64,000 nt of DNA, from positions 337,102 to 401,101 of the forward strand of contig JAZJZE010000001.1 in NCBI GenBank assembly GCA_040390065.1, written 5' to 3'. The notes below the pieces were generated by a model. It saw nothing but the letters and a program-made list of their open reading frames with translations, was not told where the DNA came from and did not search any database. Below are positions 1 to 44,340 of the stretch, piece after piece. Positions within the stretch are counted from its first letter, which is position 1, and every line of letters starts with the position of its first letter. The position numbers were made by a program, and so were the translations under genes. This stretch comes from a bacterium. GTDB taxonomy: Archaea > Thermoplasmatota > E2 > JACPAO01 > JAHFTW01.

Positions 1-44
1 TTGAGGTGCACGTCGAGGAGGTGGAACTTGCGCGCCTTGGGCAT
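1..44 (-). CDS. 5' end of an unidentified CDS running off the window edge
   Basis: Minus-strand ATG at 44..42 followed by open frame MPKARKFHLLDVHL to position 1. Only 14 codons are visible. Confidence 0.2.
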   Translation of the reverse strand, partial: MPKARKFHLLDVHL

Positions 45-51
45 GGCCCGG

Positions 52-2391
52 TCAAGCCCGTCCGGCGTTAGAGGCTTGCCGGCCCTTCGGGGGGCCTGGC
101 GCGGCCGCGAACAGCCACCAGCACGATGGCGACCAGCAGGCCAACCAGGACGAGGGCTGCGCCGCCCAGCACGACCCAGGCGGGGATGCCGGGCGCGGTG
201 GCTGCGGACGTCTCCGGCACGGCCGCCTCGGGGGGTTCATGTCAGATGCCTTGGGCGCGGTGGCTGACGGTGCCGCCGTCGGAGCGGCGACGGCCACCCA
301 GACGGTTTCGACCGCGACGCTGGTGTCCTGGCCGTTGCCGACCTCGAGGGCAAAGCGCAACTGCGTCGCCTGCGACGGAGCGTTGAACGACGGTGTGGCG
401 GAGCTTGCATCGTCCAGGACGACGGCCGGGCCTTCCCACTGGGTCCAGTGGTACGACGTGGCGCCGGTCGAAGCGCTGCCGTCCAGGGCGATGCGCGAGC
501 CGGCGTCGGCGTTCGCTTGGCCAACCACCTGGGCCTGCAGCCCGGAGGCGGTCGGCTGGACGGTGACGGCGACGCCGTCGCTGGCGCCGCGCGAGCCATC
601 CTCGATGGCGACTTCGAGGTAGAACGTCGTCGGTTCCGAGACCGTCGGCGCCTGGAACGTGACGACCGACGTGGTTGCGCCCTGCAAGGCCACGCTAGGG
701 CCCGACGTCTGCGCCCACCGGTATGTGACGCCAGACGCTGCGGTCTGCGCGTGCAGGCTGACCGTGCTGCCGGGGTTGACCATGCGGTCGCGGCCCGCGT
801 CGACGGTCAGCGGGGCCGGAGGCGGCGCGGTCGGCGGCAGGTTGCTGTCAGTTCCCTGCGAACCCGATCCAGACGACGAGCTTGAGGACGAGCCGCCTGC
901 CGAACCGCCGGACCCGCTTGAGCCGCCATTTCCGTTCGACGGATTCGGAGCTGCCACGTGGATCGTACGGCAGCCCTTCGTGCCGACGAGGCCGAGCCGG
1001 TCGTACGGGGTGAGGCACGCGGAGAAGGAGCCGGCATTGCCGTAGATGTGCAACGGCCTGGAGTCGTGCGACAACGCGCCGTCACCGAAGTTCCAGTCCC
1101 AGGCGGACATGACGTCCCCTTGGTCCGGGTCCGTCGAGGAGTCGACGAAGGTGACGGTCTGTCCGGCGACGCCGTCGATGGGGTCTGCGGCGAAGAGCCC
1201 GGTCGGAGGCCGGTCAGGTCCGACAGTGAGCTTGAACGGCGTCGATCCCGTGCAGCCCGCGTCGGAGGCCCTCATCTGCATCGGATAGATGCCTGCGGAC
1301 CCGAGGCCGTCCGTCCACTGGAACGCTCCGGTCGCCGGATTGATGGTCGCGCCCGACGGGATGGTGCCGCCGAGCGAGAACGTCATTGCGTCGTTCTCGA
1401 AGTCCGTGGCCGTGGCCGTGAACTGCAGGACTTGGCCTTCGTTGGCGGTGAAATCGCCCAGGGGCGTGACGACGGGACAGCAGTTGGGGTCGCCGATGGA
1501 GGTCCACGTCTGGGTTGCCGTGTCGGTCGCGCCGAGGCTGTCCGTGATGGTGAGGCTCACCGTCTTTGCGCCGGTTGCCGTGTACGTGTGGGTGGTCGTG
1601 GCGCCGCTTTGCGCCGGTGTCGCGTCGCCGAATGTCCAGGAGGAACTGGTGATGCCGGCCTGCGGGTCCGTCGACGTGCTCGTCGCCGTCACGGTCGAGT
1701 CCTGGCACGTGCCCGGCGAGGTCAAGGAGAAGGAGGCCATGGGGCCGCGCTGGGCGCATGACAGTTGCACGTTGTCGATGAGGACGCCCGCATTGTCGCT
1801 CGACGCCCCAGGCTCGGGGAGGTTCTGGAAACCGATGGCGTAGGTGCCTGCCGCGTTGACCTTGAAGGTCGGCGCAAGCGTCACGGTGCCCCACGCGGCT
1901 TGGTATGCGATGGGCGCCGTGGACGTTGCTGCCGGCAAGGGACGGGCGATGGAGGCGACCGGGATGATGTACGCGCGCAGGGTGTCGGTGGGTGAGAAGG
2001 CGCGCTGCGTCCCCGCCTCACTGAAGCTGAGGGTGAACTGGCCCGTCGGGAAGGTCATCGTGTGGTAGAAGAATCCGGCCTGGTTGCTGGAGCCGTCCAA
2101 GTCGACGAACTTGCCGGTCGTCGTCGCGGCGAAGGTCGCCCCTGGCGCAGTGAAGTCCGCATCCGCGGCCAGCGTGTAGAAGTCCACGGAGCCGCTGAAG
2201 ACCTGCCAGTTGAGCCACGAGGTCTTGCCAAGCTCCTTGGTCCCGCTTGCCGGTGTATCGCCTTCGAAGTTGTCGGAAAACGTCGAGAAGCCCATGCAGT
2301 CGCCACCGGCCTGCGCCGCGCTTTCCGTCACGGCAAGTCCCAATCCAAGCATGAGCATGGCCAAGCATACGCTGACCCAACGAGAAACCAC
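52..2391 (-). CDS. Secreted PKD-domain surface protein; C-terminal membrane anchor is out of frame
   Basis: GTG start and signal peptide (VVSRWVSVCLAMLMLGLGLAVTESAAQA). Two PKD-like modules (WTFGD..HTY, WNFGDG..HIY), a Ser/Gly linker, and two C-terminal repeats paralogous to those of 16650..20099. A TM helix plus basic tail is encoded in another frame at 68..241. Confidence 0.8.
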   Translation of the reverse strand: MVSRWVSVCLAMLMLGLGLAVTESAAQAGGDCMGFSTFSDNFEGDTPASGTKELGKTSWLNWQVFSGSVDFYTLAADADFTAPGATFAATTTGKFVDLDGSSNQAGFFYHTMTFPTGQFTLSFSEAGTQRAFSPTDTLRAYIIPVASIARPLPAATSTAPIAYQAAWGTVTLAPTFKVNAAGTYAIGFQNLPEPGASSDNAGVLIDNVQLSCAQRGPMASFSLTSPGTCQDSTVTATSTSTDPQAGITSSSWTFGDATPAQSGATTTHTYTATGAKTVSLTITDSLGATDTATQTWTSIGDPNCCPVVTPLGDFTANEGQVLQFTATATDFENDAMTFSLGGTIPSGATINPATGAFQWTDGLGSAGIYPMQMRASDAGCTGSTPFKLTVGPDRPPTGLFAADPIDGVAGQTVTFVDSSTDPDQGDVMSAWDWNFGDGALSHDSRPLHIYGNAGSFSACLTPYDRLGLVGTKGCRTIHVAAPNPSNGNGGSSGSGGSAGGSSSSSSSGSGSQGTDSNLPPTAPPPAPLTVDAGRDRMVNPGSTVSLHAQTAASGVTYRWAQTSGPSVALQGATTSVVTFQAPTVSEPTTFYLEVAIEDGSRGASDGVAVTVQPTASGLQAQVVGQANADAGSRIALDGSASTGATSYHWTQWEGPAVVLDDASSATPSFNAPSQATQLRFALEVGNGQDTSVAVETVWVAVAAPTAAPSATAPKASDMNPPRRPCRRRPQPPRPASPPGSCWAAQPSSWLACWSPSCWWLFAAAPGPPKGRQASNAGRA

Positions 2392-2524
2392 ATTTTTTCG
2401 ACACAGACGCAGTACTAGAGGTTTGGGTTGGTCGGTTGCCTCGTCGGTCTATGGATCGCCCGCCACTTCACCAAGGGCCGGCCAGCGGCGTGGCCGGGTC
2501 TGGCGGGGCGCCGTTGTTGCGAGT

Positions 2525-2998
2525 TCAGTTGTGGCCCTGCGTGCCGGGGCAAGCCCAAAGGACGTTCCAGCCGTATTGGTATAGGAGCAGTTCGCAGACC
2601 AGGAGCTGGCCATTCGACAGGCCGTTGGTCGTCCAGGTCACCGTTGCGTTGCGGTCGAAGGCCATGCTCGCCGGCCACTGCATGAACGACGCACAGTCCT
2701 GCGGCACTTGTTCCTGGCCGGCTTGGGCGAGGCAGCGGAGCGCGAGGCCCATGGTCGAGCAGGGGGTCGTGACGATAATCCAGCGGCCGTTCTGGGGATC
2801 GAAGACGCGGGCGTAGTGCTCGCCGCCCGAGCCCCCGGTCTGGACGAAATCGGCGCCGGGTGCAGGGTACGGTTGCTCCGCCGGCTGGGTGGTCACGCAC
2901 TTCGTGTCCGGTGAGCTGGGCGGTGGCGGTCCAGCCCAGGCGGGCGTGGCGGCGAGCAGGACGATGGCGAGGCTGGCGATTGCATACAGGCGTTTCAT
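2525..2998 (-). CDS. Small secreted Cys-containing protein, unknown function
   Basis: Internal ATG at 2998 gives MKRLYAIASLAIVLLAATPAWA signal peptide. 4-nt ATGA overlap with the upstream gene. The longer ORF-track N-terminus is Arg-rich junk. Confidence 0.6.
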   Translation of the reverse strand: MKRLYAIASLAIVLLAATPAWAGPPPPSSPDTKCVTTQPAEQPYPAPGADFVQTGGSGGEHYARVFDPQNGRWIIVTTPCSTMGLALRCLAQAGQEQVPQDCASFMQWPASMAFDRNATVTWTTNGLSNGQLLVCELLLYQYGWNVLWACPGTQGHN

Positions 2999-3765
2999 GC
3001 GTTTTCCTCCGAGACGAAGATCCAGTGATAATCGGCGTCGACCGAGTAAGCGGCCACGGGCGCCATTCCGGCGGGGGCGGCGGCAACGGTGTTGGGCAAG
3101 GTGCCTTGCAGGCTTCCCGCGAGGCTCACGTCGCCGACCCCTTCGCGCGTGCTGGAGTCGAATGCGCCTGCCAGCCCGAGGCCCTGCCCGTGCATGCGCC
3201 AGTCGGCGGACGCCGTGTTGTGGCGCGCAGTCACGCCGCCCAGTCGCAGGTCGAGACTGCCGCCTGCAGTGTCTTGCACGGACCAATGCGCGAGGGCGCT
3301 GTCGGCGCTGCGGTCGATGGTGGCTTGCTGGACGTTGAAGCCGAGCTCGCCCCAGCGGGCGGCCAGCAGCGCATTGTCGACGTAGCCTTCGAGCAGGAAC
3401 AGGTCGGGCGGTCGGCTAGCGTCTGGCGGCGCGACCACGGCGACGAAGGTCATGACGATCCGCACCGTTTCCAGCACGGTGGCGTTGTCGAGCGCCGCGG
3501 ATTTGCACTCGCCGAACCGGGTCGAGACCGGATACACGTTCTCGGTCGTCGGATCGTAGGAGCGCAAGGAGTAGCCGGGGGGCAGGCGGGAGCGCACCGC
3601 GGCCGCGTCGACGGAGTAGGCGGCGTCGATTGCGGTACATCCCTGCAACCAGAAGTCCGCGCCGCGGCCATGGCAGTCCTCGCAGGCCTGGGCCAGAGGC
3701 AGGCGGTCCGGGGGGGTTGCGCATCCGGCCAGGAGCAGGCAGGCAAGTGCCACGCCCAGTCTCAC
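2995..3765 (-). CDS. Lipoprotein, unknown function
   Basis: MRLGVALACLLLAGC lipobox-type signal. 4-nt overlaps with both neighbours suggest an operon with 3762..5384. Confidence 0.65.
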   Translation of the reverse strand: MRLGVALACLLLAGCATPPDRLPLAQACEDCHGRGADFWLQGCTAIDAAYSVDAAAVRSRLPPGYSLRSYDPTTENVYPVSTRFGECKSAALDNATVLETVRIVMTFVAVVAPPDASRPPDLFLLEGYVDNALLAARWGELGFNVQQATIDRSADSALAHWSVQDTAGGSLDLRLGGVTARHNTASADWRMHGQGLGLAGAFDSSTREGVGDVSLAGSLQGTLPNTVAAAPAGMAPVAAYSVDADYHWIFVSEENA

Positions 3766-5384
3766 GTCGAGGCCTCCGCCGTGGCCTCGCGGGTCGGGGG
3801 CGACAGGGTGGGGGCCGGAATGGCGGCGGGCGAGTCGACGGGCAAGGCCGCCATCCCGGCAGCCACGCGCCAGGCGACGGCACGGCCGTGTGCCACGCGC
3901 TCAAGCACGCCTTCCTCTTCCAGCAGCCGCGCGTGGTACAGGACCAGCGGATGCGACGTCACGGCCAGCCCCTGTTCCGTCCAGCTTTGGCGCAACCCTG
4001 CGTAGTCGATGGGCAGGGCGGATTGTCGCACGCCATTGTAGATGCGGGCCCGGATTGGATTGTGCAGGAGCGCCATGGCTTCGAGGTTGGCGGGCGGCGG
4101 ATGCGCTCCACCGGCGTGCAGGAGTTCGGTCATGCCATCGAGCCGGCCGCCGATGGCTTTGGCTCGTTGCAGGACGCGTACATGGAAACGGGTGGTGCTC
4201 TTGCTGAGTCCCAGGTGGCGAGCCATGTCGCCGATGGAGGAGCCTGGCCGGCGCGCGACCTCGCGCAGGATCTCGGCGCGGGCCGGATGCGTGGTGGCGT
4301 TGCGGCGGTGCGCCACGGCCAGTGCGACGAGGGCGGGGCCGCGCAGGATGAGGGCGCCAAGCCCAACGCCCGCCAGGAGCGTGGCGCCCGTGGCCAGCGC
4401 ACTGCGGGAACCGAAGGCTGCGGCGCCGCCGACGCCCAGGTACGTCACGTTGCCAGCAAGGCTCCAATGGGAGGCCGTCTGCTCGTACGAGGCAGCGATG
4501 TGGAGGTCGCCGATCGCCTGGAACATGGCGGTGTCGGCGTCGTAGGATTGCGGTCCGATGTCGACCGCGCCCGTGACGCCCGTGAGCGCCATGTCGCCAA
4601 CGGCGCGGCCGTCGAGGCTCGCGACACAGTGCCGCCAGGTGCCGGCAAATGCTGCATTGGCGGCGCCCGCTTTGGCAATCGCGACGACTTCGTGCCGCAC
4701 GAGGCCGGGGCCGTCGTGGTTGGTGCCGGTCGTGGCAGCACCGGAAGACCATGCCATGGTCCCGCCGTGCAGAAGGACGGTGAGGCCACCGGAGGCTGAT
4801 GGGATGGCCGACGGACCAAGATCGGCGATGCCGCAGGCCCCGGCCGGCGTCGTCGCGGTGGCGTCGGTGTCTGGCAGGTAGCGGCCCTCCGTGAAGCCGG
4901 GCAGCGTGAATGGTTCGAGGCGCTGGTCGCCTTGGGCCTGCAGGGCGCCGACGTAAGGCGCCGACGACAGGAACGGTACGACGAGAAGGGTCGCAGGCAC
5001 GGCCGGAGTACCCTGCGGGAAGAAAGACAGGTTGGGCGCGTCGCCCTCCGCAAGGACGGTTGGTGTCAGGGGTACACTTGTCGACGGCGTCGTCGTCTCC
5101 AAGTAGTCGAAGCGCACGACGCGATAGTGCCAAGCACCCGATGCATCTAGGGCTTTGAGGCCGTCCCCGGCGCCGAGGAGAAGGCTGGCGCGCAGATGGG
5201 CTTCGCCGGAAACCTTGCCGTGCAGGGTCCACGAACCCGTCGCCACGACTTGGCCCTCCAGGTGCCCCGAATCGGCTGCGGCGGGGACCGGGGCGGCCAT
5301 CAGGGCGACCACGGCGAGGCATGCCCCCACGACAGCGAATGCGCCGGTCCGACCGTGCACGAGCTTCCCACCAAATCGAGGCAT
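3762..5384 (-). CDS. Membrane-tethered transcription regulator: signal/TM, ~330-aa extracytoplasmic domain, TM, cytoplasmic double winged-helix (ArsR/TrmB-like)
   Basis: ATG start. N-terminal hydrophobic AFAVVGACLAVVALMAAPVPAAA, second TM ATGATLLAGVGLGALIL followed by HRRN. HTH-like SIGDMARHLGLSKSTTRFHVRVLQRAKAI and a second wHTH-like unit (LVLYHARLLEEEGVLERV). Confidence 0.7.
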   Translation of the reverse strand: MPRFGGKLVHGRTGAFAVVGACLAVVALMAAPVPAAADSGHLEGQVVATGSWTLHGKVSGEAHLRASLLLGAGDGLKALDASGAWHYRVVRFDYLETTTPSTSVPLTPTVLAEGDAPNLSFFPQGTPAVPATLLVVPFLSSAPYVGALQAQGDQRLEPFTLPGFTEGRYLPDTDATATTPAGACGIADLGPSAIPSASGGLTVLLHGGTMAWSSGAATTGTNHDGPGLVRHEVVAIAKAGAANAAFAGTWRHCVASLDGRAVGDMALTGVTGAVDIGPQSYDADTAMFQAIGDLHIAASYEQTASHWSLAGNVTYLGVGGAAAFGSRSALATGATLLAGVGLGALILRGPALVALAVAHRRNATTHPARAEILREVARRPGSSIGDMARHLGLSKSTTRFHVRVLQRAKAIGGRLDGMTELLHAGGAHPPPANLEAMALLHNPIRARIYNGVRQSALPIDYAGLRQSWTEQGLAVTSHPLVLYHARLLEEEGVLERVAHGRAVAWRVAAGMAALPVDSPAAIPAPTLSPPTREATAEAST

Positions 5385-5518
5385 TTATCACCTGTGGCGT
5401 ACGGTTGTTGAACTCGGCCTCTTTCGGCCCAACGTATCTAGACAATAGTGCCCGGATTGGGCCCGCCCTGCCGTGTTTCGCAGTAGCCGTTCCGTTTCGG
5501 GCTTGATGGCCGCGGCGC

Positions 5519-7453
5519 ATGCCACACTTCCCCGTGGGCCCCGCTTCCCGCTGCCCTTGCAGCTTCGGGCATGGACATGGTCCCGACAAACGTCAAGACC
5601 AGGGCCCGAATCGTCACCCTGTGGCTGTCCGCCTGGTGGTTGCATCCCTCGTCCTCTCGGCGGCCGTCGCGGGCGCTGCCCTTCCGGCCCCATCACCCTC
5701 GTTTGCCGGGGGGTCGGCGTACTCGCTGCACATCGTCTGCCCGACGTCGAGTGCCCTGCAGTTCAGCTCCTACTCGCGACCGACCTGTCCCGTCCGCATG
5801 GTGGATACGTCCGAGATGCTTGGCGACCCCGCCTTGGCCATCGACCCGATGGACGGCAACAACCTGGCCATGGCGATGATCCACGGTGCGGTCGACGGCG
5901 GCGGCCCCACGGTGCGCAGTCGCATCGGCCTGCCCTTTACGACGTTCACGTCCAACGACGCAGGTGCCACGTGGGACGACGCCTTTTACCAGTCGCCGCA
6001 GGACCTCGGCAACGCATACGGCGAGCATTCCGCTGCGGCCGTCGACCCGTACGGTCACGTCTACGTCGGTTCCACGTACGCGGTGGGCGAAAGGGGCGGC
6101 CCGTTCCGCTACACGATCGGCGCGCAGAAGTTCGACAGCGTCGAGCAGGTGCGGCAGAAGCAGACGGGTGCCGACGGCTCGTACAACCTCGTCTACGTCG
6201 ACCCGGTGTTCAAGGGCGGGAAGATCCGCCAGACGTGGTTCCTGTTCAACGCGGCCACGGACAACATGACCATGGTGTGGTTCGAGGACCGGGGCAACGC
6301 GCCGTCCGGGTCGGCCACGGTACCCGGCGACGCCCCGCAGGCGGATGCCGATTCCTTGGATGTCCTTCCCGGCTACGCAGCGCGTCGACTTGCGCCGCCG
6401 CCCCACTCGTCACCGCCAGCCAGCAGCGTGGCGCCGCGTGGAACGATCGGCATCGTGTGGACGGGCGTCGGTGACAACGACACGTATCGCCGCCAACCCG
6501 TCGAGTGGTCCATCGGGCCGTGCAGCGGTGCAACGAATCCGGTGCTCTTCGAAGGCTGGCTGTACGTCGGCTGCCAGGCCGACCCGAAGCAGGGGGCGTT
6601 CCCATGGCATCCGGAGACCCAGCCGGGCACGGTGGAGCTGTTTCGCATGGACCCCGACGGCGGCAAGCCCGTCTACATGGGGGCCAGTCCCATCGTTGGC
6701 GGCGCGCCAAAGCTGGGCGTGCGTTCGGATGGCCGGCTTGCCCTGTTGTCGGCCGGCGTCTCCTCGGCCAACGGCTTGGACCTCACTGGCGTCTTCGGGC
6801 ACTACTCCGACGGACGCATCGACTGGACTGGCGTGCACTCGTACTCGGACGGCGTCACTCCTCTGGCCCGCGATGAACGCATCCTGCGCGCCAACATCCA
6901 GGACGTCCTGTACCGCGAGTACTCGGGCGTCGTGCACCTCATCCTGCGCGAGACCATCGAACCGGTGGGCATCGACGCCGTGCAGAAATCCATCGGCCCC
7001 AAGATCCGCAAGTGCTTCGTCGCCTTGGACGAGGATGGCGTCCTGGCCGTGCACCGACTCGACATCGGCAACGTGCTCAACAAGACGGACCCGTTCCTGA
7101 ACTCGCAGCCCGAGATGGCCTACGAGGACTTGAGCGACGACATCGTGCAACTCCCCGCCGCGCCCTTCACGTACAACGGCAAGGACCTTGGCGACACGTA
7201 CCAGCGGGAATTCTTCGCCGTCGGCGACTACGGCGAGGCCATCTTCGCGGAGGTCGTGGAAGTGACCGACCTGCGCTTCGTCCCGCCCGTCCCCGTCATC
7301 GCGGCCGCCCCTGGCATCCCCGCAGCCGCCGCGTCCGGAACGAGCAGCGCGCTCGGAGCCGTCGTCGGCGTCACCACCGGGGCCCTGCTGTTGGCCATGA
7401 TCGCGGCGGGCCGAAAAACGGCGGTCGGCAGCATGGCGAAGATGCGCAAGTGA
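5519..7453 (+). CDS. BNR/Asp-box beta-propeller (sialidase-like fold) surface protein with C-terminal TM anchor
   Basis: Asp-box SNDAGATW. Signal-like VAVRLVVASLVLSAAVAGA (a GTG at 5621 is a plausible alternative start). C-terminal ALGAVVGVTTGALLLAMIAAGRK anchor. Confidence 0.7.
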   Translation: MPHFPVGPASRCPCSFGHGHGPDKRQDQGPNRHPVAVRLVVASLVLSAAVAGAALPAPSPSFAGGSAYSLHIVCPTSSALQFSSYSRPTCPVRMVDTSEMLGDPALAIDPMDGNNLAMAMIHGAVDGGGPTVRSRIGLPFTTFTSNDAGATWDDAFYQSPQDLGNAYGEHSAAAVDPYGHVYVGSTYAVGERGGPFRYTIGAQKFDSVEQVRQKQTGADGSYNLVYVDPVFKGGKIRQTWFLFNAATDNMTMVWFEDRGNAPSGSATVPGDAPQADADSLDVLPGYAARRLAPPPHSSPPASSVAPRGTIGIVWTGVGDNDTYRRQPVEWSIGPCSGATNPVLFEGWLYVGCQADPKQGAFPWHPETQPGTVELFRMDPDGGKPVYMGASPIVGGAPKLGVRSDGRLALLSAGVSSANGLDLTGVFGHYSDGRIDWTGVHSYSDGVTPLARDERILRANIQDVLYREYSGVVHLILRETIEPVGIDAVQKSIGPKIRKCFVALDEDGVLAVHRLDIGNVLNKTDPFLNSQPEMAYEDLSDDIVQLPAAPFTYNGKDLGDTYQREFFAVGDYGEAIFAEVVEVTDLRFVPPVPVIAAAPGIPAAAASGTSSALGAVVGVTTGALLLAMIAAGRKTAVGSMAKMRK

Positions 7454-7611
7454 GGGGCGTCGGAAGCCGCCGTGGCCATGCGGCGGCTGACGGGCCGCGA
7501 TGCAACGCAAAGACCATGCCATCGAGACATGCAATCGGTGGGCGCCGCCGGACACGCCCCGTGGCGCGAACGGTGAAACAACGCAATCCAGCAACGCCGT
7601 CGTCCAGGCGG

Positions 7612-8193
7612 CTAGTATCCAACAGCCCCGCCGCGGATCCTGGGCCGTGGTCCGACCGTGTCCTCGCGGGGCGGGCCGCGCCATGTTCGCCAATGGAGCG
7701 CCACGTCCGTCGGTGTGAAGGAAAGACTGACTGTCATGACGAGCGGCGTCTCTTGCGTCCGCTCCATCCAAGCGCGAATCCATTTGGCTTCTGCGACGTC
7801 CTGTTTCATGTGCATGAGGGCACGGCCCCGCCAAACCTTCCATTCGATGACGGCCAACGGAAAATGGGTTGGCGTCCAGCTCGTGCCGCCCGACTCCCAT
7901 GCGGTGCCATACGGTTCGGGCCAGATGACCAGGTCCTTCGCGATGGCGGCTTTCCGCTTGCCGTTCGTGGCGACGCCGTTGGGGATGCTGACCTCGATTC
8001 CGATCTGGCCGACGTCCTGCAGCGGGCTCCCGGCATGACCAACCTTGGGCAACAGGTGGCGGAAAACGAAGCGATTGACGGCCTCGCGTTCCCGCCCAAC
8101 CCATCCGTCGCCCGCGGCATCCGCCACGAATTCCTGGAGTGCCTCTATGATGACAGTCTGCAGGGTGCGGCAGGATTCGGGGTCGCCCGCCAT
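7612..8193 (-). CDS. Hypothetical protein with PD-(D/E)xK nuclease-like motif
   Basis: ATG at 8193 (MAGDPESCRTLQ..). Motif series IGIEVSI ... KDLVIW ... AVIEWKV resembles the E / D / ExK restriction-endonuclease fold. Lies next to the tRNA-Leu att-like repeats. Confidence 0.5.
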   Translation of the reverse strand: MAGDPESCRTLQTVIIEALQEFVADAAGDGWVGREREAVNRFVFRHLLPKVGHAGSPLQDVGQIGIEVSIPNGVATNGKRKAAIAKDLVIWPEPYGTAWESGGTSWTPTHFPLAVIEWKVWRGRALMHMKQDVAEAKWIRAWMERTQETPLVMTVSLSFTPTDVALHWRTWRGPPREDTVGPRPRIRGGAVGY

Positions 8194-8273
8194 GGGGGAA
8201 TGCCCGGGCGTGCTGCCAGCCACGCTCGGCCAAAGGGGAGCTCCACCATGAGGTTGACGCAACCTCGCGAGCC

Positions 8274-8631
8274 CGCAGCGTTCCTCGCCGCTTCGCGGCA
8301 TCGGCAAACCTGTCCTGGCACCTACGACGTGCTCGCTTCGCTCGCGGTCTCAGTGCACAGGACAGGATTTGGCGCTGCGGCCGCGCAGGCGCAGCCGCAG
8401 CGTTCCTCGCCGCTTCGCGGCATCGGCAAACCCTGCCCATGCACCTGTCTGTCGCCGGCGGGCGCTCGGCGCCGCCGATGCGACGCGACTTAGTGCACAG
8501 GACAGGATTTGGCGCTGCGGCCGCGCAGGCGCAGCCGCAGCGTTCCTCGCCGCTTCGCGGCATCGGCAAACCCTGCCCATGCACCTGTCTGTCGCCGGCG
8601 GGCGCTAGGCGCCGCCGATGCGACGCGACTT
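8274..8631. repeat. Tandem 140-bp repeat (2 full units plus a diverged partial unit), each unit ending in the 3' end of tRNA-Leu
   Basis: AGTGCACAGGACAGGATTT at 8352-8370, 8492-8510 and, in the real tRNA, 8632-8650. Units 8352-8491 and 8492-8631 are nearly identical by eye. Confidence 0.85.
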
Positions 8632-8633
8632 AG

Positions 8634-8715
8634 TGCACAGGACAGGATTTGAACCTGCGAACCACAAAGGAGAAGGCCCTGAACCTTCCGTCGTTGGCCA
8701 CTTGACTACCTGTGC
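8634..8715 (-). tRNA. tRNA-Leu (anticodon CAG), type II, no intron, no encoded CCA
   Basis: Manual cloverleaf: acceptor GCACAGG/CCTGTGC, D arm GTC..GAC, anticodon arm GAAGG-TTCAGGG-CCTTC, long variable arm, T arm GCAGG-TTCAAAT-CCTGT, discriminator A. Confidence 0.85.
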
Positions 8716-8792
8716 ATTTGGGGAAAAGGGCCAGCCCTTGCGGAGGGCTGCATCCGGCCGACTTCAGGTTGGCACTTGAGGGTTGCGCCCAG

Positions 8793-8910
8793 GCGAACCA
8801 CAAAGGGGAAGGCCGTAGCCCTCGGGCCATCAGGTCCGAGGGCGCGACGTGGACGCCGCGAAGCGGCGGCCCGGCCAACCTTCCGTCGTTGGCCACTTGA
8901 CTACCTGTGC
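8793..8910 (-). pseudogene. Truncated, disrupted copy of the tRNA-Leu 5' part
   Basis: The first 34 nt and the next 22 nt (1 mismatch) match the tRNA. The CAG triplet is replaced by a 62-nt two-hairpin insert (8815-8876). No T arm or 3' acceptor strand follows. Confidence 0.75.
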
Positions 8911-8950
8911 AGACGGTTGGGAAGAGGGGAGAAGTGGATTCCCTTGAACC

Positions 8951-9745
8951 TTACATCTCGAGTTCGCCGATGGCGTCCGCGAAGCGCTTGAAGCGCTCGC
9001 CCAGGAGGTCGAGGGCCTTCATGAGGGCGTCCTCGGCCTTGAGCGACCCGTCCGTCTCGAAGCGGAAGATGAACTTGCGGTCGTCGTAGGTGATCTTGAG
9101 GCCGCCCTGCGTCAGCTTCTCGGCTTCGTCCGCGCGGTTGATCTCCTCGGGCTGCAGGATGACGAGCTTGCCGCCATCGAGTCCCAGGATCCCCGCAGGC
9201 GTGCGGGCGACGGCTTCCTTGGCCGCCTCGGGCTTGATCTTGCGATTGTCCAACGTCGCCGTCGGGTAGTACTTGTAGCCGACCGCGGAGCAGACTTGCC
9301 ACTTTGCGTGCTGCGTGCCGTCGCCGAGGATGGCTTCGGCCTCGAGGATGAGGCGCTGGCCTTCCAGGAGGTCAACGAGCGGGACCTTCGCGTCCACGAT
9401 GCTGAACTTCTTGTCCTCGGGCTCGAGGTCGCCGGAGTACACCGTGCACGGGCCCTCCTTGGTGAGGGTGTAGCGCACGAGGTACGTCGGCTTGCCTTCG
9501 GCGTCGACTTGGCCCTTCATGTTGAGCGTGGAGGGGTCGGTCGGCACCGGCAGCAGGCCGATGCGGTGGGCCAGGATCTCGTCGAAGAGCGCGGAGGTGT
9601 TGTCGTAGAACGTCACCTTGTCGATGGCGAGCTTGGGCACTTCCGACAACAGGACGCGGCGCAGGGCATTGACGAAGTACGGGTGAACGCCGTCGATGAC
9701 GAGCTTGCACTCGCGGTCCGTGACGTTGCGAATCTCGATCTTCAT
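8951..9745 (-). CDS. rpoD: DNA-directed RNA polymerase subunit D (Rpo3)
   Basis: MKIEIRNVTDRECKLVIDGVHPYFVNALRRVLLSEVP. Last gene of the S13-S4-S11-RpoD block. A GTG at 9754 is an alternative start. Confidence 0.9.
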   Translation of the reverse strand: MKIEIRNVTDRECKLVIDGVHPYFVNALRRVLLSEVPKLAIDKVTFYDNTSALFDEILAHRIGLLPVPTDPSTLNMKGQVDAEGKPTYLVRYTLTKEGPCTVYSGDLEPEDKKFSIVDAKVPLVDLLEGQRLILEAEAILGDGTQHAKWQVCSAVGYKYYPTATLDNRKIKPEAAKEAVARTPAGILGLDGGKLVILQPEEINRADEAEKLTQGGLKITYDDRKFIFRFETDGSLKAEDALMKALDLLGERFKRFADAIGELEM

Positions 9746-9754
9746 GTCAAGCAC

Positions 9755-10144
9755 CTACACGCGCCGGCCGCGGCGGCCACCCTTCTTGCGGCAGCCGTCG
9801 TGCGGGATGGGAGTGACGTCCTCGATGCGGCCGACCATGATGCCGTTGCGTGCCAGGCCGCGGATGGCGGCTTGGGCGCCGGGGCCGGGGCTGCGGGCCT
9901 TGTTGCCGCCGTAGCCGCGCACGCGGATGTCGACCGTCGTGAAGCCTTTCTCCTTCAGGGCCTCGGCGATGCGCTGGGCGCACGCCATGGCTGCGAAGGG
10001 ACCGCCCTTGTCCTTGTCGGACTTGACGGCCATGCCGCCCGAGGCCTTCGCCACCGTCTCGGCGCCCGTGGCGTCGGTGACGGTGATGAGCACGTTGTTG
10101 TAGCTCGCGAAGATGTGCGCGATGCCGCGCTTGTCGGCGCTCAT
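9755..10144 (-). CDS. rps11: 30S ribosomal protein S11 (uS11)
   Basis: [33 protein letters not shown]; operon position. Confidence 0.95.
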
Positions 10145-10746
10145 GCACTACCTCCCGGACCGGTGGCGCCGGCCGGGGCCGGAGCCTCCGCCAGCGACGG
10201 CGCCGGCGTCTCGAAGCCCTGCGCCTTGGGGCGCACGGGGTGGTTCTCGTCGGCGATGGCGGCGGTGGGGTCGATCATGATCTGTTCCTCTTCGCCGCGG
10301 CGCACGACGTACGACGGCACCGTCACGCGGCGGTCGCCAATCTTGATGTTGCCGTGGCTCACGAACTGGCGCGCCTGCTTGGGCGTGCGGGCCAATCCCT
10401 TGAGGTAGACCTGCGTCTGGAGGCGGCGGTTGAGGACGCGCTCCAGATCCAGGCCCAGCACTTCGTTGAGCGTCGCGTTGTCGCCGAGGTAGCCGCTGCG
10501 CTGCAGGCGGGCGATGAGCAGGCGCGACTCAGTCACGGCCTGTTCGTCCGCCGGGTTGCGCGTGCGGGCGATGAGGGCACGGGCCTGGCCGCGCACGTCG
10601 CGCAGGATGGTCTGGGCCTTCCAGATCTCGGTCTTGTTCTTGAGACCGTACTTGGACTTGACTTCGTTCTCCGCTTTGATGCGTTCGCCTTGCCACGGGT
10701 GGCTCGGCGTGTCGTAGTGGCGGCGGTTGAATTTGGGCTGGCCCAT
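10141..10746 (-). CDS. rps4: 30S ribosomal protein S4 (uS4)
   Basis: [23 protein letters not shown].., S4 domain [26 protein letters not shown]. Confidence 0.95.
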
Positions 10747-43807: not shown

Positions 43808-43808
43808 G

Positions 43809-43891
43809 CGCCGAGGGCAGGATTTGAACCTGCAAATCCAGGGGACACTGGTTTTCGAGACCAGCGCAATACCGGGTTATGCGACCTCGGC
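43809..43891 (-). tRNA. tRNA-Ser (anticodon CGA), type II
   Basis: Manual cloverleaf: acceptor GCCGAGG/CCTCGGC, anticodon arm CTGGT-CTCGAAA-ACCAG, variable arm, T arm GCAGG-TTCAAAT-CCTGC, discriminator G. Confidence 0.88.
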
Positions 43892-44308
43892 AGGTAAGTC
43901 GGCCGACTTGTGGCCGCTATTTCCAGGTTTCGTGCCGTGCGAGCGCGACGCGCGAGCCATCAGGGGGTCGCGGGGGGCGGTAAGCCCCCCCGCAGGTCCG
44001 CGGGGCCGCAGGCCCCGCTGCCCAAATGATCGACCTGTTTGCAGGTCGAGGGACACTGGTTTTCGAGACCAGCGCAATACCGGGTTATGCGACCTCGGCA
44101 GGTAAGTCGGCCGACTTGTGGCCGCTATTTCCAGGTTTCGTGCCGTGCGAGCGCGACGCGCGAGCCATCAGGGGGTCGCGGGGGGCGGTAAGCCCCCCCG
44201 CAGGTCCGCGGGGCCGCAGGCCCCGCTGCCCAAATGATCGACCTGTTTGCAGGTCGAGGGACACTGGTTTTCGAGACCAGCGCAATACCGGGTCATGCGA
44301 CCTCGGCA
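43842..44308. repeat. Tandem 208-bp repeat (2 full units plus a truncated third), each carrying the first 50 nt of tRNA-Ser plus a 158-nt hairpin-rich spacer
   Basis: Units 43842-44049 and 44050-44257 are identical by eye. The third copy ends ~44308 with one substitution (44294). The ORF track shows the same 66-aa peptide twice (43877..44077, 44085..44285). Confidence 0.9.
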
Positions 44309-44340
44309 GAAGGGCGCTGGGGCGGAGGCCAGGGCTCGCC

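Follow-up and report, generated by a model that had tools for sequence, protein, structure and literature searches.

The repeats of the Escherichia coli tyrT operon, known as tyrT/rtT repeats, have been for decades an isolated curiosity of uncertain function. In strain MG1655 (NC_000913), 3.1 copies of a 178-bp unit follow tyrT-tyrV, and the last 19 nt of tRNA-Tyr, starting from A58 in the T-loop, are found at six sites, namely in the two tRNAs, the spacer that separates them and every unit. The unit carries the complement of this segment upstream (GGGGAAGGAT) as well as internal hairpins and has a stem-closed fold, and the non-coding RNA (ncRNA) rttR and tpr are annotated on one unit. Indeed, rttR is encoded by one repeat unit of the operon (PMC3318445), and rtT RNA has been tied to the processing of the tyrT transcript and to the stringent response (bioRxiv 10.1101/2024.07.17.603846). 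Here we describe repeats of comparable design directly after the tRNA-Leu(CAG) gene of an uncultured Thermoplasmatota archaeon, within a 64,000-nt stretch of a metagenome-assembled genome (MAG; assembly GCA_040390065.1, contig JAZJZE010000001.1), the whole of which is referred to as the window.

As in the tyrT operon, the archaeal units stand head to tail directly after the tRNA and each of them ends in the last 19-20 nt of that tRNA, the copy beginning in the T-loop (A58 in E. coli, C56/A57 in the archaeon). In both cases an upstream complement together with internal hairpins gives a stem-closed, multi-branched fold, about three copies are found, and the units contain no mobile-element genes. 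By contrast, there is no sequence homology between the two, the unit measures 178 nt in E. coli but 115-140 nt in the archaea, the closing stem has ~10 bp instead of 16-19 bp, and the E. coli copies include the encoded CCA, whereas the archaeal copies end at the discriminator base plus two trailer nucleotides. Furthermore, the archaeal locus has no evident Tpr-like open reading frame (ORF) and possesses a truncated 5' tRNA copy with an insert. The Rfam model RtT (RF00391) has no match in window positions 7000-10500 at E<=10 and none in L157, one of the loci of relatives designated here by L numbers; the best match anywhere (13.7 bits, E 9.3, in L005) lies below the gathering score of 45, and it pointed to the E. 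coli tyrT operon. The archaeal counterpart is independent of E. coli, and the T-loop start, the upstream complement and the stem-closed fold that the two have in common suggest a recurrent route by which tRNA genes spawn linked structured units. Perhaps both loci also rely on tRNA end-processing enzymes.

Repeat units downstream of tRNA-Leu(CAG)

On the minus strand the order of the locus is rps4, rps11, rpoD, a 5' tRNA-like piece, a spacer, tRNA-Leu(CAG), units 1-3 and an ORF at 7612-8191. The tRNA and the units are made up as follows:

8633..8715, minus strand: intact tRNA-Leu(CAG), called by ARAGORN and by the Rfam tRNA model (48.5 bits at 8634-8715)
8492..8632, minus strand: unit 1, found by Tandem Repeats Finder (TRF) and a covariance model (77.9 bits, E 3e-16)
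Parts of unit 1, minus strand: spacer with its own hairpin 8585-8632; inverted copy of the tRNA 3' end 8567-8584; first hairpin (H1) 8549-8561; second hairpin (H2) 8513-8542; direct copy of the tRNA 3' end 8492-8511
8352..8491, minus strand: unit 2, found by TRF, the covariance model and register comparison
Parts of unit 2, minus strand: spacer 8445-8492; inverted copy 8427-8444; H1 8409-8421; H2 8373-8402; direct copy 8352-8371
8164..8351, minus strand: unit 3, older and diverged, found by motif search and the covariance model (8164-8323, 23 bits, E 0.009)
Parts of unit 3, minus strand: spacer; inverted copy GTGCCAGGACAGGTTTG 8305-8321; H1 8287-8299; a long replaced interior; degenerate direct copy CGAATCCTGCCGCACC 8164-8179

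TRF detects a 140-bp period over 8352-8651 (2.1 copies, 99% matches), and the last 18 nt of tRNA-Leu (AAATCCTGTCCTGTGCAC) occur at exactly three sites in the 64 kb (8633, 8493 and 8353, minus strand), against an expectation of 0.02. The direct repeats are 20 nt long, identical to the tRNA 3' segment, and lie at 8632-8651, 8492-8511 and 8352-8371, the first of them being the last 20 nt of the tRNA itself with two trailing nucleotides included. An original prediction made from the sequence had placed the intact tRNA at 8634..8715, which agrees with Rfam (8634-8715) and with ARAGORN to within one nucleotide (8633-8715), and had described the recurrence of the tRNA 3' end with an exact 140-bp period, which TRF and the three sites of the 18-mer bear out. 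About three differences had been counted between the two full units; in register, units 1 and 2 differ at only 1 of 140 positions. The further, diverged unit that had been suspected near 8274 is indeed present, with an inverted copy and H1 at 8287-8321 and a covariance-model match that extends it to 8164-8323. The motif GCCGCGAAGCGGCGAGGAA is found three times in the array, unit 3 included, and the inverted copy and H1 of unit 3 are identical to their counterparts in unit 2 of L157.

Read in the direction of the tRNA, the unit plan consists of a 48-nt spacer with a hairpin, an 18-nt inverted copy of the tRNA 3' end, H1, H2 and the 20-nt direct copy. The linker CCGAT precedes H1, which has a 5-bp stem and a GAA loop (GCCGC-GAA-GCGGC in unit 1), and the linker GAGGAA precedes H2, a 13-bp hairpin. 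The direct copy spans C56 of the tRNA T-loop, the acceptor strand, the discriminator base and two trailer nucleotides. Two folds are predicted: in fold A the inverted copy pairs with the direct copy of its own unit, resulting in a Y-shape with two hairpins (-66.4 kcal/mol, z -6.4), and in fold B it pairs with the preceding tRNA 3' end across the spacer (-53.5 kcal/mol, z -6.4). Overall, the predicted folding of the units lies well beyond that of shuffled sequence (z -6.4 to -8.5). The intervals between the direct repeats contain no ORF of real length.

The tRNA-Leu(CAG) gene after rpoD is orthologous in more than 20 relatives, and nearly all relatives hold it in this position. Units of the same plan follow the orthologous tRNA in L157 (3 units; its RpoD is 94% identical to that of the window), L002 (1), L003 (3), L005 (3) and L006 (1), and in the further relatives L011 (2), L012 (at least 2), L151 (2) and L162 (1), the window itself having about three; altogether, at least 10 related genomes have 1-3 homologous units at this position. 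Degenerate unit-like remnants are seen in L001, L004, L158, L160 and L161, and tRNA-Leu stands without any unit in L007, L010, L013 and L014. Unit length ranges from 115 to 140 nt across the clade. A covariance model built from 14 units was used to search the window and the loci (365 kb, both strands); it matches only directly after tRNA-Leu and recovers unit 3 of the window as well. In the closing stem and H2, 89.9% of the cells are paired and 10 pairs are changed on both sides, which was reached by 0 of 500 column shuffles, and slid controls for stem pairing gave only 33-48% paired. Six of the eight H2 pairs show compensatory changes, the H2 stems being CGCTGCGG/CCGCAGCG in the window, CCCCGAGGC/GCCTTGGGG in L157, CCCTCCGG/CCGGAGGG in L002, L011 and L151, GCCCGCGG/CCGTGGGC in L003 and CCCTGCGC/GCGCAGGG in L005. 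The inverted copy tracks the acceptor of its own genome, e.g. GCCCAGG in L003 and GCGCGGG in L162 and L151. Given this common plan, the covariation and the single locus, the units form a conserved, structured and locus-bound family and are therefore not random remnants. Expansion during assembly is unlikely, since similar arrays are present in many independent assemblies.

The breakpoints vary among the relatives, lying at nt 62 in L012, in the anticodon loop in L146 and in the 5' strand of the T-stem in the first units of L011 and L151. In one public assembly a gap of 100 N falls inside the tRNA-Leu unit array (L012:11167-11266 / L163:7167-7266); such repeats therefore break short-read assemblies, and the copy numbers in MAGs are minimum estimates. 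A metagenome scan with a D-arm pattern returned mostly bacterial tRNA-Tyr, and the only clade loci among its matches were L145, L146, L149 and L151. In L146 (reverse strand), a second, nearly full-length tRNA-Leu-like copy is located ~5-180 nt after tRNA-Leu. Its 5' acceptor and D arm are degenerate and its last 47 nt at the 3' end are intact, as is the CAG anticodon, immediately before which lies a 94-nt insert with multiple hairpins; this insert has an H2-like hairpin (CCGGCCGCGCTTGCGCGGCCGG) in common with the T-loop-type units of L011 and L002.

Among close relatives, the acceptor stem of tRNA-Leu(CAG) changes at an unusually high rate within an otherwise almost constant tRNA. Within the comparison set (the window, L001-L014, L151 and L157-L164) the variants GCACAGG, GCCCAGG, GCACGAG, GCACGGG, GCATCGG, GCAAGGG and GCGCGGG are found, and certain downstream direct copies retain the acceptor type of another lineage.

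The truncated tRNA-Leu copy beside rpoD

On its other side, the intact tRNA is preceded by a second kind of partial copy:

8793..8910, minus strand: 5' tRNA-Leu-like piece of 118 nt, defined by exact comparison with tRNA-Leu
8716..8792, minus strand: spacer of 77 nt that separates the intact tRNA from the 5' piece; it has a hairpin and, directly before the tRNA, a T-rich stretch (read from the sequence)

Positions 8877-8910 correspond to tRNA nt 1-34 and positions 8793-8814, apart from one mismatch, to nt 38-59. The 62-nt insert (8815-8876) lies between nt 33 and 34 and forms hairpins at 8852-8870 and 8818-8843, the anticodon position reads TAC, and both the T arm and the 3' acceptor strand are missing. 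Exact comparison thus confirms the tRNA halves and the two-hairpin insert as originally described, but not the common breakpoint that had been assigned to both kinds of partial copy: the 5' piece stops after nt 59 (..GGTTCGC), the 3' copies begin at nt 65 (CAAATCC..), and the 5 nt AGGTT are present in neither. In L157, where the piece is missing, the orthologue of the DNA upstream of the 5' piece flanks the intact tRNA; the 5' piece therefore occupies the ancestral tRNA position beside rpoD, and the intact tRNA follows 195 nt later.

A homologous 5' piece exists in the distant relative L012 (RpoD 75% identical), where the insert is likewise located between nt 33 and 34 and the two pieces share the insert-flanking bases TT-GGCC ... 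GGC-TAC. Relative to the window, the L012 piece has compensatory changes in both hairpins, and the same is true for its anticodon stem relative to the tRNA of L012, while nt 37-38 after the insert match the own tRNA of each genome. The spacer at 8716-8792 shows no homology to the L012 spacer. Such persistence of the 5' piece, in these two examples, suggests constraint. A scan for strict bulge-helix-bulge (BHB) motifs (3-nt bulges, 4 bp apart, at the exon-intron junctions and restoring a 7-nt loop) found neither a motif that would excise the insert nor a conserved candidate in the window, L012 or L146. As no BHB motif would remove the insert, the 5' piece is not a standard intron-containing gene; it may be a conserved tRNA-derived ncRNA in which the anticodon loop is replaced by a three-way junction.

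A CTGATG motif is common to the loop of the insert's second hairpin (CCTGATGG in the window, 8815-8876; GCTGATGC in L012) and to a unit at the tRNA-Ser gene of the window (CCCCTGATGGC; 43950-44010, minus strand). It resembles box C/D elements; a full C/D pair is not seen.

Origin and possible function of the units

Starting from the observed anatomy, conservation, covariation and restriction to one locus, we read the locus as an rtT-like tRNA-linked repeat that was seeded in the T-loop, is turned over by unequal recombination and is probably co-transcribed with the tRNA, i.e. as an archaeal analogue, not a homologue, of tyrT, and we give this reading about an even chance of being right. A segment reaching from the T-loop of tRNA-Leu(CAG) into the downstream DNA would have been duplicated, so that a direct copy of the last ~20 nt of the tRNA closes every unit of 115-140 nt. 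Unequal homologous recombination between the direct copies would then add units, as may have happened with the two near-identical units of the window, and would also delete them, leading to the copy number of 0-3 among the relatives. A comparable, earlier duplication on the opposite side would have left the 5' piece, which sits at the original place of the tRNA. The reading is also supported by the tRNA-Ser gene of the window, which likewise has tandem copies of itself and no mobile-element genes close by. By analogy to rtT RNA, the units may be co-transcribed with the tRNA and freed by tRNA 3'-end-trimming enzymes as small structured RNAs. The clade variants, with 0-3 units, differing hairpins and differing acceptors, make the choice between function and selfish DNA testable by comparative transcriptomics.

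Several points weigh against this reading. Transcription and processing of the units are presumed purely after the E. coli example. tRNA-processing enzymes measure the 12-bp stack of acceptor and T-stem, and the closing helix of the units, which has 16-19 bp and often pairs past the discriminator base, exceeds it. A simple duplication leaves unexplained why an inverted copy of the tRNA 3' end exists, and likewise the conserved 62-nt insert of the 5' piece. H2 ignores host relatedness: L002 and L151, whose tRNAs differ, share an identical run of 41 nt that takes in H2, and the closer relatives window, L157 and L002 each carry a different H2. In addition, the direct copies of L003 and L151 include acceptor sequence typical of other lineages. 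The H2 mosaic and these foreign acceptor copies are more easily explained by mobility, or by recombination between lineages, than by a simple local duplication. Finally, G·T and A·C mismatches stand at 9:7 in the closing stem and at 10:3 in H2, counted over rows that are not independent; since these counts show no clear sense-strand preference, the covariation could reflect hairpins formed at the level of DNA.

Mobile elements were looked for in several ways. The ORFs beside the arrays of the window and L002 gave no match to integrases, phage families or defence families, the called genes of eight further loci included no integrase next to tRNA-Leu, and neither in the window nor in L002 is a larger segment delimited by a further tRNA 3'-end copy (<=3 mismatches). 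Two scans of the IMG/VR viral contigs, with plasmid collections outside the search, recovered no unit and no clade-type attachment sequence. The archaeal literature yielded nothing specific on tRNA-linked minihelix repeats or miniature integrative elements.

Some identities were considered and rejected. For a viral attP, the unit motif GGATTYGCSGAN{8,30}GAGGWAT matched more than 120 times in IMG/VR, always by chance in phage ORFs, and the copy of the tRNA 3' end matched only tRNAs of bacterial phages. A casposon or miniature inverted-repeat transposable element does not fit, as inspection of the intervals found no terminal inverted repeats and the covariance model found no dispersed copies in the 365 kb. 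With respect to a hammerhead ribozyme, the units have the type-I topology and GUC precedes many direct copies, but the core CUGANGA/A15.1 is missing and no Rfam ribozyme matches.

An explanation that accommodates the mosaic, and that we hold possible though unlikely, regards the units as miniature site-specific cassettes, i.e. ~120-140-nt non-autonomous elements whose own hairpin is the attachment site and which a recombinase acting in trans inserts at the T-loop of tRNA-Leu, with a logic that can be likened to integron attC or to single-stranded CTX-type attP; it is a refined form of the 'miniature non-autonomous elements' of the original prediction. The T-loop, in which the direct copy begins, is reported (Williams 2002) to be a classic crossover sublocation for tRNA-targeting integrases. 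Serial insertion with a T-loop crossover also predicts that the inverted copy of unit n pairs better with direct copy n-1 and its trailer than with its own copy, which is the case in 11 of 13 comparisons, and the foreign acceptor types in the direct copies of L003 and L151, the different assortment of H1 and H2 among genomes with H2 identical in L002 and L151, the H2-like hairpin within the anticodon-loop insert of the second tRNA-like copy of L146, the variable copy number and the unit-free tRNAs of certain relatives point in the same direction. However, the n/n-1 rule is partly or even largely trivial, since arrays end in a degenerate direct copy that is followed by a different trailer. None of the arrays was found to have a recombinase nearby, neither the covariance-model search of the 365 kb nor the viral contigs gave dispersed or extrachromosomal copies, the units are cargo-less, a tRNA that received a foreign 3' acceptor strand would be broken without a matching change in its 5' strand, and the E. 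coli analogue needs no such mechanism. In integron attC arrays the sites are imperfect palindromes that keep structure over sequence, and the left arm of a site matches the right end of the preceding one, a logic echoed by the pairing of the archaeal inverted copy n with direct copy n-1. By contrast, no R''/R' cores (RYYYAAC ... GTTRRRY) are evident by eye at the archaeal locus, its arrays have no cargo ORFs and are anchored at a tRNA, and no IntI was found in the loci examined. The more general idea that the units and the hairpin modules in tRNA-like loops make up a new class of cargo-less cassettes, which adopt a single-stranded fold and which a trans-acting recombinase inserts at tRNA loops, seems to us quite unlikely. 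If true, acceptor ends of tRNA-Leu would be exchanged between lineages, and this would explain the fast acceptor turnover together with the foreign acceptor copies and the H1/H2 mosaic.

It is also conceivable, albeit improbable, that the units are functionless DNA satellites, namely decaying tandem duplications whose complementarity is kept by quasi-palindrome correction and gene conversion from the tRNA instead of by selection on an RNA. This would suit the absence of units in several relatives and their degeneration in others, the mismatch counts without a clear sense-strand preference and the abundance of hairpins in GC-rich genomes, as well as the array at tRNA-Ser(CGA) described below, which is missing in three relatives and whose 3' part is the native promoter region, as predicted for a plain tandem duplication. 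Such satellites are, however, hard to reconcile with a four-part plan and linkers (CCGA, GAGGAAT) that are kept across lineages with RpoD ~75-80% identical to that of the window while the stems change pairwise, with an inverted copy that follows the acceptor of its own genome, and with the compensatory change in the anticodon stem of the L012 5' piece; persistence of this kind is hard without constraint. Scars of large integrated elements (a virus, plasmid or island) that were nearly wholly deleted, with 1-8.6 kb as a surviving island, had been the preferred interpretation in the original prediction, and partial tRNA copies beside archaeal tRNA genes do usually come from integrated elements (PMC9897764, PMC8371274). 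As with the att sites of tyrosine integrases in archaeal tRNAs, direct repeats of the 3' segment follow an intact tRNA, the boundary lies in the T-loop and the neighbours are variable; L002 moreover has a lower-GC insert of 4 kb with a DUF1643 gene, located between its unit and the ancestral neighbour gene, cyclophilin. The intervals, by contrast, measure only 95-120 nt and are gene-free, no integrase or phage-like gene and, in the window and L002, no distal repeat was found, and the units are structured, conserved across genera and each equipped with an inverted copy of the tRNA end. As they keep their internal plan and compensatory stem changes across genera, decay of att scars is unlikely, and overall we consider this origin very improbable. 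Thus, of the integration proposal, the partial copies are real and non-random and must have been produced by recombination at the tRNA gene, but repeated integration at a single site does not agree with 5' and 3' breakpoints that differ, nor with the conserved structured units, of which neither an integrase nor a viral copy was found. The supposed island keeps its uniqueness, since positions 1-8300 are specific to this genome, but with no bounding repeat and no mobility gene it is unproven. Partial copies beside archaeal tRNAs are routinely taken as integration scars that delimit islands, and this locus is a warning that they can mislead.

A disrupted tRNA, in which the 5' piece is intron-containing or split, the downstream units supply 3' halves and the archaeal splicing machinery joins them, appears extremely improbable. 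Interruptions of tRNA-like sequences in the anticodon loop and T-loop are familiar from disrupted archaeal tRNAs, the window and L012 have both kept the insert between nt 33 and 34 with compensatory changes, and nt 37-38 match the own tRNA of each genome. However, the strict scan found a BHB motif that would excise the insert in none of the window, L012 and L146, inspection showed no complementarity of the 5' piece's trailer to the unit leaders, and the 5' strand of the T-stem and the TT of the T-loop are in neither partial copy, so that the T arm cannot be rebuilt. Furthermore, a complete tRNA-Leu(CAG) is available at the locus, and ARAGORN and Rfam call only this intact tRNA and neither partial copy.

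Neighbouring genes and the repeat at tRNA-Ser(CGA)

The window has a high GC content (~68%), and its RpoD is 70-94% identical to RpoDs from Thermoplasmatota MAGs. Two public labels are apparently wrong, as the source of the window is given as 'bacterium' and L002 as 'uncultured Halobacteriales'; both join Thermoplasmatota MAGs by RpoD and histidyl-tRNA synthetase (HisRS). The genes on either side of the tRNA locus are:

8951..9754, minus strand: rpoD (RNA polymerase subunit D; Pfam RNA_pol_L and RNA_pol_A_bac), which ends the rps4-rps11-rpoD block upstream of the tRNA locus
7612..8191, minus strand: first ORF 3' of the array, 193 amino acids from an ATG at 8191, given as context and outside the repeat system

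In the proposed gene order rps13-rps4-rps11-rpoD-tRNA, the part rps4-rps11-rpoD is placed by Pfam, and rps13 of the window is placed by homology to relatives with an annotated rps13. The operon context had been thought to break at the tRNA in this genome; the continuation rpl18e-rpl13 is in fact missing after tRNA-Leu in every relative examined, and this is therefore a trait of the clade and not a break made in the window genome. DNA 3' of the array is specific to the window genome, with no homologue of positions 1-8300 in the locus of any relative, and gene content 3' of the tRNA-Leu array differs in almost every relative, so that the tRNA-Leu site is plastic. In L158 (10867-12276) and L161 (6889-8756), protein genes lie between rpoD and tRNA-Leu (an LVIVD-repeat protein, in L161 also a hemerythrin-like protein), and the tRNA-Leu of L160 and L164 has an inverted or displaced position. 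Throughout the clade, the rpoD/tRNA-Leu junction is a hotspot of rearrangement.

The ORF at 7612-8191, earlier called 'PD-(D/E)xK-like', has no match in Pfam, NCBIfam, PHROGs or PADLOC, and no homologue of it was found in the loci of the relatives. The degenerate direct copy of unit 3 (CGAATCCTGCCGCACC) falls within its opening codons; its N-terminus may be repeat-derived, or its true start may lie further downstream.

The only other tRNA of the window, tRNA-Ser(CGA) at 43808-43891, also has copies of itself nearby (43808-44309, minus strand). Its first 50 nt recur twice upstream within a 208-bp tandem repeat (2.2 copies, 99% matches), each unit of which has several GC hairpins and, as its 3' part, a promoter-like region (GAAATAGC) that relatives also keep ahead of their tRNA-Ser. 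The surroundings of this repeat in the window showed no mobile-element genes; the neighbours are a divergent gene for a subtilisin-like protease and a downstream ORF that is syntenic with the SAMP2 gene of relatives. The repeat is missing from the three relatives L169, L165 and L167. With self-copies at both tRNA-Leu and tRNA-Ser, tRNA-proximal duplication seems to be a habit of the window genome. In L169, which belongs to the same genome as L012, a mini tRNA-Ser-like leader (GCCGAGGTTGCAG-hairpin-CAAAACGCCCTCGGCA; 7721-7830, minus strand) lies between the promoter-like box and the tRNA. It consists of an acceptor stem and a remnant T arm with a hairpin in the T-loop, which corresponds to the design of the tRNA-Leu units, but on the 5' side of the tRNA.

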